DNA of 64,000 nt from Planctomycetota bacterium (GTDB lineage Bacteria; Planctomycetota; UBA1135; UBA2386), in contig OZ245838.1 of assembly GCA_965228735.1 (NCBI GenBank), positions 4,928,001 through 4,992,000 of the forward strand, given 5' to 3'. A program made the translations under genes and the position numbers. This document shows positions 52,704 to 59,576 of the stretch, piece by piece; position 1 is the first letter of the stretch, and the number at the start of each line of letters is the position of its first letter. The notes below the pieces were generated by a model that was not told the origin of the DNA, did no database searches, and saw nothing but the letters and a program-made list of their open reading frames with translations.

Positions 52704-54386
<1,683 letters not shown>

Positions 54387-54440
54387 GGTGGGGATACTCC
54401 GGGGGAATGTTGGGTTGGGTTCGCGAGCGAGCCGGTGGGA

Positions 54441-54746
54441 CTAGTCGATCACGGCGAGGATCTCGTCCTCACCGAGAATGAGCAGGTCGTCGCCGTCGAG
54501 CTTGATCTCCGAGCCCGCGTAGGACGAGAACAGCACGCGGTCCTTCTTCTTGACCGTCATCGCCTGGCGCGAACCGTTGTCGAGCATGCGGCCGGCGCCG
54601 ACGGCGACGACGATGCCTTCCTTCGGCTTCTCCTTCGCGGTGTCGGGCAGGATGATGCCGCCCTTGGTCTTCTCGTCGGCTTCGACGCGCTTCACGAGGA
54701 CCCGATCGCCGAGGGGGGTAACGGTCGCGGACTTGGTCTTGGACAT
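54441..54746 (-). CDS. groES: Co-chaperonin GroES
   Basis: [25 protein letters not shown]. Confidence 0.98.
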
Positions 54747-54831
54747 TGCTTTGCGTGTGGTTCGGCCAGGCACTGGCTGGCTGCGGGGAATGGTTGTTGA
54801 GACGGAAAGGGAGACCGAGAGCGCGCGCGGG

Positions 54832-55329
54832 TTACGGGCCGCGCGGCGGCTGCTGCGGTGAAGAGGGGAAGTTCGGCCGGCCCAACTGGGAGCCCGGCAA
54901 CTGGGAGCCCGGCAGCTGGCCGCCGGGCAATTGGGGCGGCAACATGGTGAGCGGGCCACCGAAGTGCGTGCGGATCAGCTGCTCGACCGTGCGGCGCAGC
55001 TGGCCGAGCTCGAGCGGCTTGCGCAAGAACGCGAAGAAGCCGGCCGAGCGGGCGGCCATCGCCTCTTCGGACGACGCCAGGCCCGACATCAGGATCGCCG
55101 GCAGCGGCCGCACGCTGGCAAACTGGTGGAACAGCTCGAGGCCGGTCGCGCCGGGCAGATGGAAGTCGAGGATCGAGAAGTCGAACCGCTGCCGATAGAC
55201 CAGGTTCATCGCTTCGTCCGCGGCGCTGGTGGCCGCGACCGCCCAGCCCTCGGAGGCCAGGAACTCGCTGAGACAGACTCGCAGCGAGTCGTCGTCTTCT
55301 ACCAGCAGGATGCGGAACGTCTGAGCCAT
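54832..55329 (-). CDS. Single-domain response regulator (receiver) with QLPG-repeat tail
   Basis: [15 protein letters not shown] (phospho-acceptor Asp), MSG, FLRKP. Confidence 0.9.
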
Positions 55330-55582: not shown

Positions 55583-55918
55583 TCAGCGCGCCTCGTCGTC
55601 GTCCCCGTCCCCGTCCTCGTCCCCGTCGTCGTCGAGGTCGTCGTCCATGTCGTCGTCGAAGTCGTCGTCGTCGTCATCGACGTCGTCCAGGTCCGCTTCG
55701 TCGTCGCCGTCGTCGCCGTCTTCCCAATCGTCGTCGTCCTCGTCCTCGTCGATGTCGCCGTCGTCGTCCTCGTACGACGCCAGGATCCGGTCCCAGTCCG
55801 CCACCTCGATGGTGCTGTTGCAGACCATGCAGACACTGTCGTTGTCACGTAGGTCCTCGAGCTCTTCGAGGTCCCGGTAGACCTTGCCGCATTCTCGGCA
55901 CTTGACGATCTTGCCCAT
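55583..55918 (-). CDS. Small zinc-ribbon protein with very acidic C-terminal tail
   Basis: CRECG...CMVC followed by about 60 residues that are mostly Asp/Glu. Confidence 0.8.
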   Translation of the reverse strand: MGKIVKCRECGKVYRDLEELEDLRDNDSVCMVCNSTIEVADWDRILASYEDDDGDIDEDEDDDDWEDGDDGDDEADLDDVDDDDDDFDDDMDDDLDDDGDEDGDGDDDEAR

Positions 55919-56609: not shown

Positions 56610-57647
56610 TCAGTTCGAGACGCCGAGCTTCTTCGCAGTGGCCTCGAGTTCTTCGAGGGTCTTCTGCGCGTTGGTGATCGCCTCCTCGAGGCGGCCACGC
56701 ATCTGCTCGTTGTCCTTGTAGCGCGGCCGGTAGCCCTCGAGCATCTCGACGCGTTCCTTGCGGCTCTCGTGGACGCGCGCGTACGCGTACTTGAACGCGT
56801 CACTGTCGTTGTGCTCCTGCGCGGCCTCGATCAGCATCTCGTCGACGAACGCCTGTGGGCTCGACTCGGCCGGCAGGCGCTTGCCCGCCTGGAACGCGGC
56901 GTAGACCTTGCCGCGCGCTTCGGCCATGTCCTCTTCGGACACGCCGCGGCGCTGCACCGACTTCTGCACCTCGCCCATCTCGATGATGAACGCGTTCTGC
57001 ATGGCCGTCTTCTTGGCGTCGCCCTTCAGGCCGAGACGCTCGATCTCGGCGTAGGCCTCGGCCGCCTCGATCTCACCGAGGTCGATCCGCGCCATGAGGT
57101 AGGCCTGCTCGTCGTAGTCCTTGCCGGCCTCCTTGAGCTTGTCGAGCTTGGCGAACGCGCCCGCGGCGGTCACGTAGCGCTTCATCGACGGCAGGTCGCG
57201 CGGCACGCTCTTGGTGAGCGCGTCACCGCTGCTGTCGAGCACGGCGAGCGACGGGAAGCCGCGGAAGCCGTAGGTGCGCAGCAGATCGTCGTCCTCGCGG
57301 CCTTCGATCTTGGTCATGACCGCGGCGAACGGAATCGCGTTGTCCTTGACCCAGCTCTGGAAGTCGTCGGTGGAGAACACCCGGTTCTCCAGGGCGATGC
57401 ACGGCGGTCAAGGGGAGTACGTGCGCGTGAAGTACGCGAAGATCGGCTTGCCGGTCTGCTCGGCTTGCGCCTTCGCGGCGGCGAAGTCCGTGATCCAGGC
57501 ACCACCAGTGAACCACTGGTGTTCCTGCATCGCGGCGTAGTTCGCCTTCATCTTGTCCTGGTCGTAGGTGCGCTGCGCCGCGAGCTCGGGCGCCATGAGC
57601 GCGAGCACCGGGGCGAGCGCCAGGGCGCTGGGAATCAGTCTCGTCAT
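56610..57647 (-). CDS. Exported thioredoxin-fold protein, probable selenoprotein (U80-P-P-C83), 345 aa
   Basis: ORFs 57408-57647 and 56610-57380 are in one frame, joined by a single TGA (57410-57408): ...KPIFAYFTRTYSP-U-PPCIALE...; cis-Pro motif RGFPSL. Confidence 0.85.
57371..57391 (-). promoter_or_regulatory. Candidate bacterial SECIS hairpin
   Basis: mRNA UGGAGAAC-CGGGU-GUUCUCCA; 8-bp stem after a 16-nt gap from the UGA; G at loop position 2. Confidence 0.65.
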
Positions 57648-57872: not shown

Positions 57873-59576
57873 ATGGTCGAGGCCATCGTCTACGCCTTCG
57901 CGATCGCCGATGGGCTCGAGCCCGTGGTGGGGGCGGCGCCATACGACGTGCTGTCACGGCAACTTCCGCGCCTGCTCGTCGTGCGGCTCAACGACGACGG
58001 GGATCGCGGCGCGCGCTTCTTCCCGCTGCTCGGCACCGCCGGCGGCAAGCGCGGCTTCCTGCGGTTGACGACGCCGTTCGACCCGGCCCAGCTCATCGCG
58101 CTGCACAAGCAGCAGGACGTGCGGTACGTCTGCGATGGCTGGCTGCGCGCCGGCGAACTGACCTTTCGCTGTCTCGACGGCAGCACCGGCAAGGTGCTGC
58201 GCGAACTGACGCTGCCGTTCGACCCGCGCACGCCGACGGCCGTGCTCGCGCGGCTGCAGTTCGAGCTCATGGACCTGCTCGGCTGGAGCGGGCGACCGAC
58301 GCCGGAGCTGCCGTTCGACGGCGAGCTGCTCGGGTGGTTCCTGATCCTCAAGGACACGGTGTTGCGACTCGAGGCCGGGCTCGACGCCGACGTGGAACAC
58401 GCGGTGCGGGCCGCAGAGCGTTGCTTCGAACTCGACGGCGGCAACCTCGAGATCGTCGACGTCGTGACCGACGTCGCGGCCCACGTTCTCAAGCAGCGCG
58501 AGCATCGCGACTCGATCGCCGCGATGCTGCGGCCGCTCGTCGACAGCAACGAGCTGCCGGCCGACCGGTTCGAGCGGCTCGGTGCGCTGCTGCTGGCCGC
58601 CGGTGACGAACGGTCCGCCGCGACCGCGACGCTGCGCGCGGCGCGTTCGGCGATCGAGCGCGAGGAGCTCGTGGAGCGCTGCGTCGGGTTGCTCTTTCGC
58701 CTCGAGCGCTACGAAGAAGCGGCCGACCTCGTCGAGCTCGCGCGCGAGCGTGGCACCGCGAGCGTCACCGCGCTCGCGCAATACGCCGCGTGCTGCGATC
58801 GCCTCGGTCGCGCCGAGCTCCGCACCGAGCTCTGCGACGAGATGCTCGCGGTGCACGACCTGCCGGTGACCGTCGCGCGCCTGCTCGTCTCGTTCTTGCT
58901 CGAGGACGATCGCGCCGAGCGCGCACGTGCCGTTGCCGAACGCGCGCTAGCAGTCGACCCGACGCAGTCGGTGATGCATCTCGAGCTCGGGCGCGCATGC
59001 CTCGACCTCGACGACAGCGAGCACGCGGCGGCGGCGCTGACCCAGGCGCTGGAGCGCGGCCTGCCGCCCGAGCACGAACACCGCGCGCGCCGGCTCCTGC
59101 GTCTCGCGTCGCAGCCCGGACTGTGGCGCGACGCGCAGAACGTCGAGACCGCGCTCGCGGAGGACGATCTCGACCGCGCGTTCCGTTCGGCGGTGCAGCT
59201 CGCCAAGAACTGGCGCCACTTCGCGGAGGCGTGGTTCCTCGTCGGGCTCGTGCGTCACAAGCGCGGCGAGGACCAGCGCGCCGAGTGCGCTCTGCGCCGC
59301 GCGATCCGCCTCGACGACGCCTTGCCCGACGCGCACAACCGCCTCGGCATCCTGCTCGTCGGCAAGGGCCGGGTCGAAGCCGGTCTCGAGCACCTCGAAC
59401 GCGCCCACGCGCTCGCGCCGACCGAACCGTCGCCGATGCTCCACCTCGCCCAGGGCCTGGCCGCAGCCGGCCGCCACGACGAAGCCCGCCGCTTCATCGA
59501 CCTCGCCGCCCAGAACGGCGCCGAACCCGGCCTCATCGCCGCCGTCCGCCGCGAGATCGAACCGACCCGCCGCTGA
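57873..59576 (+). CDS. Tetratricopeptide repeat protein
   Basis: AEAWFLVGLV, DAHNRLGILL and MLHLAQGLA TPR motifs. Confidence 0.85.
   Translation: MVEAIVYAFAIADGLEPVVGAAPYDVLSRQLPRLLVVRLNDDGDRGARFFPLLGTAGGKRGFLRLTTPFDPAQLIALHKQQDVRYVCDGWLRAGELTFRCLDGSTGKVLRELTLPFDPRTPTAVLARLQFELMDLLGWSGRPTPELPFDGELLGWFLILKDTVLRLEAGLDADVEHAVRAAERCFELDGGNLEIVDVVTDVAAHVLKQREHRDSIAAMLRPLVDSNELPADRFERLGALLLAAGDERSAATATLRAARSAIEREELVERCVGLLFRLERYEEAADLVELARERGTASVTALAQYAACCDRLGRAELRTELCDEMLAVHDLPVTVARLLVSFLLEDDRAERARAVAERALAVDPTQSVMHLELGRACLDLDDSEHAAAALTQALERGLPPEHEHRARRLLRLASQPGLWRDAQNVETALAEDDLDRAFRSAVQLAKNWRHFAEAWFLVGLVRHKRGEDQRAECALRRAIRLDDALPDAHNRLGILLVGKGRVEAGLEHLERAHALAPTEPSPMLHLAQGLAAAGRHDEARRFIDLAAQNGAEPGLIAAVRREIEPTRR

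Follow-up and report, generated by a model that had tools for sequence, protein, structure and literature searches.

On comparative evidence, a gene that is cut by a TGA codon in a 64,000-nucleotide stretch of planctomycete DNA (the window) reads as a single gene, in which the TGA is decoded as selenocysteine (Sec) by the organism's own Sel machinery. We put the probability of this reading at about 97%. The predicted product, called the U80 protein here after its Sec residue, is a well-supported member of an unlisted selenoprotein family that is widespread in Planctomycetota. Comparison of its Sec codon with those of other selenoprotein genes also revealed a near-fixed T immediately before the TGA in one taxonomic family, which likely helps Sec insertion in that lineage.

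Results

An in-frame TGA interrupts a thioredoxin-like gene

The sequence-only reading of the window had described two open reading frames in the same frame, split by one TGA at the first Cys of a CxxC motif, and translation and Pfam searches bore this out. The only internal TGA (57410-57408) is codon 80 of the frame, lies in the read-through peptide FAYFTRTYSP-U-PPC and coincides with the first Cys of the thioredoxin CxxC motif (Table 1). The read-through product alone matches Thioredoxin_7 (PF13899; residues 50-138, 41.6 bits against a cut-off of 27) and Thioredoxin_2 (PF13098; 33.5 bits against a cut-off of 27); the 256-aa downstream frame searched by itself matches neither. On the upstream side of the TGA GC3 is 0.90, and on the downstream side 0.94. 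TGC or TGT at this site, one of the refuting conditions set by the sequence-only reading, was not seen: assembled contigs from four runs, each of a different study, cover the codon with zero differences, and three of these contigs are possibly the source of the present DNA. The signal peptide was called from hydropathy and an A-x-A/Q pattern only, and most homologues have a similar N-terminus. The read-through protein is very likely exported.

Table 1. Features of the U80 gene (window positions) and of the dsbD gene elsewhere in the genome (contig G000:C1)
Feature	Position	Strand	Remarks
Read-through CDS, 345 aa, U80	57647..56610	-	ATG 57647, final TGA stop 56612-56610
Predicted Sec-pathway signal peptide, residues 1-24	57576..57647	-	a single Arg and a hydrophobic core; Q25 likely the first mature residue
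Thioredoxin-fold domain, residues 47-168, DsbH/DsbD-gamma-like	57144..57509	-	structure and profile match to 2ju5
T at -1 (Pro codon CCT), lineage-specific U-UGA context	57411	-	22/22 f1 Sec copies vs 3/38 outside
In-frame TGA, putative selenocysteine codon (U80 of U-P-P-C)	57408..57410	-	TGA in 113/139 family copies, Cys in 15
Resolving Cys83	57399..57401	-	kept in 112/113 Sec copies
Putative SECIS hairpin, 8-bp stem, 5-nt loop (57383-57379), G at loop position 2	57371..57391	-	24-nt spacing from TGA
G-F-P loop, thioredoxin cis-proline position, P132 invariant	57252..57260	-	cis-Pro from alignment to 2ju5
All-helical C-terminal domain, residues 152-345, ending in long helical hairpin	56613..57194	-	conserved in family, P259 invariant
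Sec-DsbD	G000:C1:4263182-4265700, TGA 4263499	-	TGA at CxxC of gamma domain

The sequence-only reading had named selA, selB, selD and tRNA-Sec as the machinery to look for, and all four were found in the genome (selA, E 1e-109; selB, E 4e-100; selD, E 2e-109; tRNA-Sec, 76.6 bits). The tRNA-Sec anticodon is UCA, and selD carries an in-frame TGA of its own. TGA is the main stop codon, closing 2766 of 4098 coding-like ORFs, and the genetic code is thus unaltered, being neither code 4 nor code 25. The same findings argue against a reading of the TGA as Trp or Cys, whether through a changed code or through leaky readthrough, as does the site itself, which corresponds to Cys in the alignment and is followed by a SECIS element. 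We give that alternative a negligible chance.

The U80 family is widespread in Planctomycetota and split in public annotation

A family profile of 33 rows detected the family in 75 of 301 Planctomycetota genomes at E <= 1e-25. The U80 protein as such matched 36 of 41 relatives' genomes, weak general thioredoxin matches included. As a single query against genome contigs it returned nothing, and homologues were found by closer alignment. Titled records of the family came mostly from Planctomycetota MAGs.

We read the codon at the Sec site from 145 distinct rows that contain the site (loci L021-L178), leaving out 12 rows that do not; six of the 145 were then dropped as DsbH-like GSDWC proteins or because of an N in the codon. 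Among the remaining 139 copies, 113 have TGA, 15 have Cys and 11 have another residue, the latter two classes having been deliberately enriched by choosing 20 regions listed without a stop. Most homologues show TGA or Cys at position 80, the two states that the sequence-only reading had named for checking, and TAA or TAG occurs at the site in none of the 139. Nearly all Sec copies (112/113) retain the full UxxC, and 72/113 have UPPC. When the copies were placed on a midpoint-rooted FastTree phylogeny, the root state was Sec and the non-Sec copies fell into 17 small clades, a scatter that suggests repeated loss of Sec. Paralogues often stand in tandem, frequently beside a Sec copy, and the non-Sec duplicates include proteins with CGAA, SPAS or EVGG at the active site. 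In some tandem arrays (among L030, L035, L037, L038, L047 and L060), a Sec copy is paired with copies that lack Sec or both redox residues. That 26 of 139 copies are without Sec, several of them also without the second Cys, suggests that the scaffold can be useful without a full redox pair.

SelA was found in 71 of 74 family-bearing genomes, and in all 44 that are well assembled. It was also present in 7 of 12 genomes of the phylum without the family; SelA is common in the phylum regardless of the family.

Public records of the family break at the Sec codon. All 72 short database homologues stop exactly there, and 38 of the 40 longer matches lack the motif upstream of it. For a close homologue, GenBank holds two consecutive entries, MCR9246064.1 (77 aa) and MCR9246063.1 (267 aa). 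The prediction that standard annotation would split the gene thus holds for the family. A further suggestion, that the family is uncatalogued, holds for the two catalogues compared, with one caveat. Neither the U80 protein nor any of 33 family members tested reached a cut-off in NCBIfam 20.0, and a 119-entry selenoprotein inventory from 2026 has no entry naming the U80 architecture; the caveat is that the generic PF13098 UxxC entry could absorb the family, and filing as "thiol:disulfide interchange protein, UxxC" is possible because the U80 protein passes PF13098.

Comparative data support a SECIS element under selection

The sequence-only reading had proposed a perfect 8-bp stem with a CGGGU loop after a 16-nt gap, and we confirmed the hairpin as described: UGGAGAAC-CGGGU-GUUCUCCA occupies +17..+37, beginning 16 nt past the TGA, with a folding energy of -10.0 kcal/mol. 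That energy is unremarkable on its own. The 21-nt hairpin has a z score of -2.74 and the entire 61-nt region one of 0.15, and the MFE fold of -15..+57 retains just the inner part of the stem. A perfect 8-bp stem exactly at +17..+37 with a loop G occurs at 5 of 134,577 TGA triplets in the genome, and any perfect 8-bp hairpin within the bSECIS window at 90 of 13,457 sampled TGA triplets (~0.7%). In the available text of PMC13188914, the bSECIS constraints are a loop of 3-9 nt with a stem of 4-16 bp, a G in the first two loop positions, a spacing of 16-37 nt and an MFE <= -7.5; the U80 hairpin agrees with all four (5 nt and 8 bp, G at position 2, 24 nt, -10.0 kcal/mol).

The decisive evidence for a SECIS is comparative. 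Among 28 TGA copies, pairing is seen in 94.6% of cells, with 23 double changes, a level reached by none of 500 shuffles and far above that of slid controls, and RNAalifold recovered the identical eight pairs unprompted. Positions +18 and +36 are synonymous third codon positions. In the 89 rows with NTN and TCN codons, this pair is G:C in 64, C:G in 17, G:G in 4, C:C in 1 and other in 3 (Fisher p 3e-13 for covariation, without correction for kinship). A hairpin with dG <= -7.5 is found in 106/113 Sec copies compared to 5/15 Cys copies, and the loop U at +27 in 82/113 Sec copies compared to 0/26 non-Sec copies. Kinship inflates these p-values, yet it hardly explains the decay of the hairpin because the Cys clades are scattered. 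Synonymous covariation and decay in Cys copies both indicate that the predicted SECIS is under selection. The hairpin is therefore conserved in homologues, and the possibility that the TGA is private to this strain, with no conserved hairpin, is refuted by its presence in 113 of 139 copies and by the covariation.

These data also bear on whether the TGA is an ordinary stop, so that the locus would be a nonsense pseudogene or would hold a 79-aa gene and a 256-aa gene that starts from GTG 57380. GenBank annotates the close homologue in the latter way (MCR9246064.1 and MCR9246063.1). Termination is also part of Sec biology: in E. coli, according to the available text of PMC7026636, a Sec UGA ends translation for ~60% of ribosomes, so a short product would be made too. 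An ordinary stop, however, would cut the thioredoxin fold at its active site. Nor does it account for three features of the family: TAA and TAG are absent from the site in all 139 copies, some copies are intact with Cys, and only TGA copies keep the hairpin. We regard it as very improbable and treat U80 as a Sec residue below.

The predicted fold is a DsbH-like thioredoxin with a helical domain

An AlphaFold model in which U was modelled as C had a mean pLDDT of 93.7 and a pTM of 0.84. In this model, the (C/U)xxC motif sits at the start of a helix (residues 81-89). The best structural match to residues 47-168 was Chlamydia DsbH (PDB 2ju5; VIA-align Z 12.6, rmsd 2.7, 117 residues aligned), to which the family profile also aligned with an E value of 2.9e-10; DsbD-gamma-like domains and other thioredoxins ranked just after it. 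The extra helical C-terminal domain of the sequence-only reading is supported as well, residues 152-345 being all helix in the AlphaFold model and conserved in the family. This domain alone gave no structural match at E <= 0.001. In a single-sequence model (pTM 0.54), it resembled generic helical hairpins only (Z <= 9.0), and for TPR repeats there was no Pfam hit, with weak helical-repeat structural matches only. The modelled fold is thus a DsbH-like thioredoxin followed by a helical domain.

Like DsbH, the U80 protein has a G-F-P cis-Pro loop and a signal peptide, and DsbD is present in the genome. It differs in sequence (21% identity, and 29.7 bits against the equivalog cut-off of 190 for the DsbH model NF043050, where the best of 33 family members reached E 4.3e-11), in having Sec for Cys and an extra helical domain, and in that its gene is not linked to dsbD. 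The available text of PMC5193440 classes DsbH as a reducing oxidoreductase of the periplasm.

Thioredoxins with UxxC are the commonest kind of selenoprotein, and we compared the family with curated members. The "Thiol:disulfide interchange protein" selenoprotein entry (representative WP_011366075.1) shares the thioredoxin fold, Sec at the first Cys, an in-ORF SECIS and PF13098. The U80 family is set apart from it by domain and motif description, having Thioredoxin_7 as best domain, the motif FTR(S/T)YxxUxxC and a 190-aa helical C-terminal domain. The Trx7/PDZ (NF041199) and VPGUxxT (NF041382/NF041383) proteins also have a Thioredoxin_7-type domain with Sec and gave weak profile matches. Unlike the former, the U80 protein (22.4 bits against a cut-off of 300) has UxxC rather than CxxU and no PDZ domain; unlike NF041383 members, it has the motif YSPU and no MsrA-like part (22.9 bits against 275, compared to 388 bits for a true NF041383 member in the same genome). 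From these comparisons, the protein appears to work like a DsbH-type thioredoxin, within the broad UxxC class and in no curated family tested.

A role in envelope disulfide reduction or isomerization is probable

We consider the U80 protein probably a periplasmic reductase or isomerase of envelope disulfides that is fed by DsbD, a role modelled on its fold and likely partners. From established Sec biology, SelB-GTP-Sec-tRNA would bind the NGU/NGG loop of the hairpin and insert Sec at codon 80. The exported U80 selenolate would then attack wrong or oxidised disulfides of envelope proteins, C83 would resolve the mixed bond, and electrons would return via cytoplasmic thioredoxin and DsbD (gamma domain U-G-S-C), while the helical C-terminal domain likely binds client proteins.

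The only DsbD found in the genome contains two DsbD-alpha-like segments, and at the CxxC of its gamma domain it has a TGA (NFTGFN-U-GSC) with a hairpin behind it. The codon at this gamma-domain site is TGA in 28 of the 31 loci read and Cys in the other 3 (L219-L249). The 2026 inventory names no DsbD-gamma selenoprotein as such, though the selenoprotein TsoB is rhodanese/DsbD fusion-like. In genomes of another taxonomic family (f10), Sec-DsbD is present without a U80 family match, and its co-occurrence with the U80 family is therefore unspecific.

The U80 gene does not adjoin dsbD. Across 138 loci of the family, no neighbour was conserved (the most frequent cluster comprised 7 distinct members from 9 loci), so that gene neighbourhood indicates no partner or substrate. 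In the window, a divergent TPR-repeat gene (57873-59576, +) lies beside the U80 gene, an arrangement found only in three same-genus loci. The groES-groEL genes (52704-54800, -) and a single-domain response regulator that ends in a short Pro/Gly/Gln repeat (54832-55329, -) are not conserved neighbours of the family. Positions 55583-55852 (-) encode a small zinc-ribbon protein whose tail is a long run of Asp/Glu. A promoter scan at the U80 gene found none, and an Rfam scan of the locus gave one chance miRNA match far under the gathering score.

The main rival to the reductase reading is a selenoprotein that acts chiefly as a redox-linked holdase, with U80 forming protective transient mixed bonds and the helical domain binding unfolded envelope proteins. 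YbbN/CnoX and ERp29 share the layout of a thioredoxin domain followed by an all-helical domain, and Foldseek returned 3qdn (E 3.6e-4), 3qou (E 1.7e-3) and ERp29. The persistence in 17 clades of duplicates without Sec, some without both redox residues, would also fit such a role. CnoX is cytoplasmic. The resemblance does not extend to the whole chain, as the YbbN matches have a TM of about 0.2 and an rmsd >19 A, which means that the thioredoxin part alone matches, and the helical domain by itself has no specific match at E <= 0.001. Moreover, retention of the complete UxxC in 112/113 Sec copies is expected of an oxidoreductase that turns over. We find a primary holdase function doubtful.

Alternatively, the exported selenoprotein could be a disulfide-forming oxidase that substitutes for DsbA. 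A Pro after the nucleophile, present in most copies as UPPC, is common in DsbA according to the available text of PMC5193440. The modelled thioredoxin domain lacks the DsbA-type helical insertion, though, and shares its G-F-P cis-Pro loop with DsbH. Neither DsbB nor VKOR was found for re-oxidation, an absence that is unproven because the genome is 93% complete. This makes an oxidase improbable, and a DsbD-fed reductase or isomerase the preferred reading.

The genome encodes many candidate selenoproteins

A scan for coding potential plus a hairpin, with TAG and TAA as controls, yielded 40 regions for family scans; a genome-wide read-through score that took no account of hairpins could not tell TGA sites from TAG controls. 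Six regions (L211-L214, L217, L218) were rejected as ordinary stops between genes by appearance. Family matches, some of them weak, extend across the TGA in 23 genes (25 sites), including the U80 gene and dsbD, and 13 further candidate genes (14 sites) have no family match. Many of the candidates start with signal-peptide-like sequences. COX1 gave two strong matches in the genome.

Several candidates merit description. A methionine-synthase-II-like, cobalamin-independent protein (PF01717; G000:C1:1761498-1762646, +; TGA 1762143; L216) has a TGA within the domain and a strong hairpin, and is not in the 2026 inventory. One TGA lies inside the match in 6 of 13 genomes with a PF01717 match, its position having been read in the present genome only. 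Three GHPLG(C/Q)T-U-xNG paralogues (G000:C1 TGA 3484699, +; 4855623, -; 6929513, +; L197-L199) have no Pfam or NCBIfam match and likely represent another unlisted family of thioredoxin-like selenoproteins. FG-GAP repeat proteins (G000:C1 TGA 3065085, +; 5872224, -; 5458926, +; L188, L189, L210) have an in-frame TGA that adjoins a Cys codon (U-C or C-U) and a SECIS-like hairpin. Two proteins have two in-frame TGAs each (G000:C1 2372 and 2123, -; 583337 and 583577, +), located in repeated heavy-metal-associated-like domains. Seven more read-through candidates (G000:C1 TGA 5497385, 5150736, 2546238, 4643014, 4375233, 3235945 and 7165651) look exported, have a hairpin and mostly a T at -1; three match Thioredoxin_7 weakly and four have no family match.

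A near-fixed U precedes the Sec UGA in one lineage

We compared the nucleotide before the Sec TGA in the taxonomic family of the window organism (f1) with that in other families. In the U80 family, T is at -1 in 22/22 f1 Sec copies compared to 3/38 outside f1. The same difference is seen in DsbD (18/19 compared to 0/9) and SelD (3/3 compared to 2/24). VPGU proteins and AhpD were examined after the idea had formed and serve as prospective confirmation: the preceding codon is GGT in 9/9 f1 VPGU proteins compared to 0/7 elsewhere, and TAT in 4/5 f1 AhpD proteins compared to 0/11. Altogether, T precedes the TGA at 56/58 orthologous Sec sites in f1 and at 5/89 outside it, across five gene families; 54 Sec rows without a taxonomic family label, 26 of them with T, were left out. 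Cys copies within f1 have T at this position in only 1/17 cases (1/9, 0/3 and 0/5).

In the genome under study, 21 Sec sites with family support allow a synonymous choice; T is at -1 in 18 of them, where 1.7 were expected, and in 12 of the 13 sites without family support. Hand choice of candidate sites may have favoured T, but the automatic candidate list shows the bias too (28/73 TGA sites compared to 0/44 TAG sites). Sec is preceded by various amino acids (P, A, G, H, Y, F, N or T), and inheritance of one codon is therefore no explanation.

Other sources of the bias were considered and rejected. U is not avoided before true stops (97 observed and 100 expected before TGA stops), the bias is confined to position -1 rather than part of a wider motif, and T is not generally frequent at third positions (68/904 at codons -2 to -9, and 4.7% genome-wide). 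The SelD count outside f1 speaks against a phylum-wide rule. An enlarged anticodon loop of tRNA-Sec is not the cause, since f1 genes have the standard 7 nt. As a separate observation, tRNA-Sec is 95 nt long in 16/16 f1 genomes compared to 92-94 nt in 15 others (L013, L280-L309), with the additional nucleotides located around the variable arm. Alignments contain f1-fixed columns in RF2 (two, one of them SPFDG next to the codon-reading SPF) and in SelB (nine), which are leads only because ancestry alone predicts such columns. In RF2, Gly stands two residues past SPF in 15/15 f1 genomes and mostly Ala elsewhere (L310-L341), and prfB retains its CTT-TGA frameshift site.

The lineage-specific U-UGA context is thus statistically strong across the orthologous sites compared. 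The -1 U likely helps Sec insertion in this lineage as an extra recoding signal, and we infer that the bias results from selection for efficient Sec insertion that acts on the P-site codon. U-UGA would act through the P-site codon or through a lineage-specific feature of SelB, tRNA-Sec or RF2. The SECIS model, as described in the available text of PMC13188914, has no 5' requirement at the UGA, in contrast to the near-fixed U at -1 in f1.

Discussion

The U80 gene adds a large unlisted family, present in 75 of the 301 genomes sampled from the phylum, to a common selenoprotein class, and it corrects a systematic split of that family in public annotation. Its SECIS elements, which combine synonymous covariation with decay upon loss of Sec, make a good test set. 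In print, six putative selenoproteins have been reported from one planctomycete genome, as far as the available text of PMC4807772 goes. Our literature search, with most subscription journals outside its coverage, returned nothing on the U80 family, Sec-DsbD or the -1 U. Aerobes rarely keep selenoproteins according to the available text of PMC13188914, a statement that Sec-DsbD and many exported Sec enzymes beside cytochrome c oxidases fit badly.

The side result on the -1 U matters more than the gene itself. In the available text of PMC7026636, a review, it is described as unclear what makes only a fraction of ribosomes insert Sec at a UGA with a SECIS, and a near-fixed synonymous -1 U allows the role of P-site context to be examined with reporters that differ by one base. 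The -1 U could also aid selenoprotein prediction and the yield of recombinant selenoproteins. For the organism itself, the evidence leaves evenly balanced the proposal that its family has evolved U-UGA as an extra cis-signal outside the SECIS. This signal would serve a largely exported selenium redox network of 23 to 36 genes, including Sec-DsbD, the U80 family, MsrA and peroxiredoxins, in an oxygen-respiring host.
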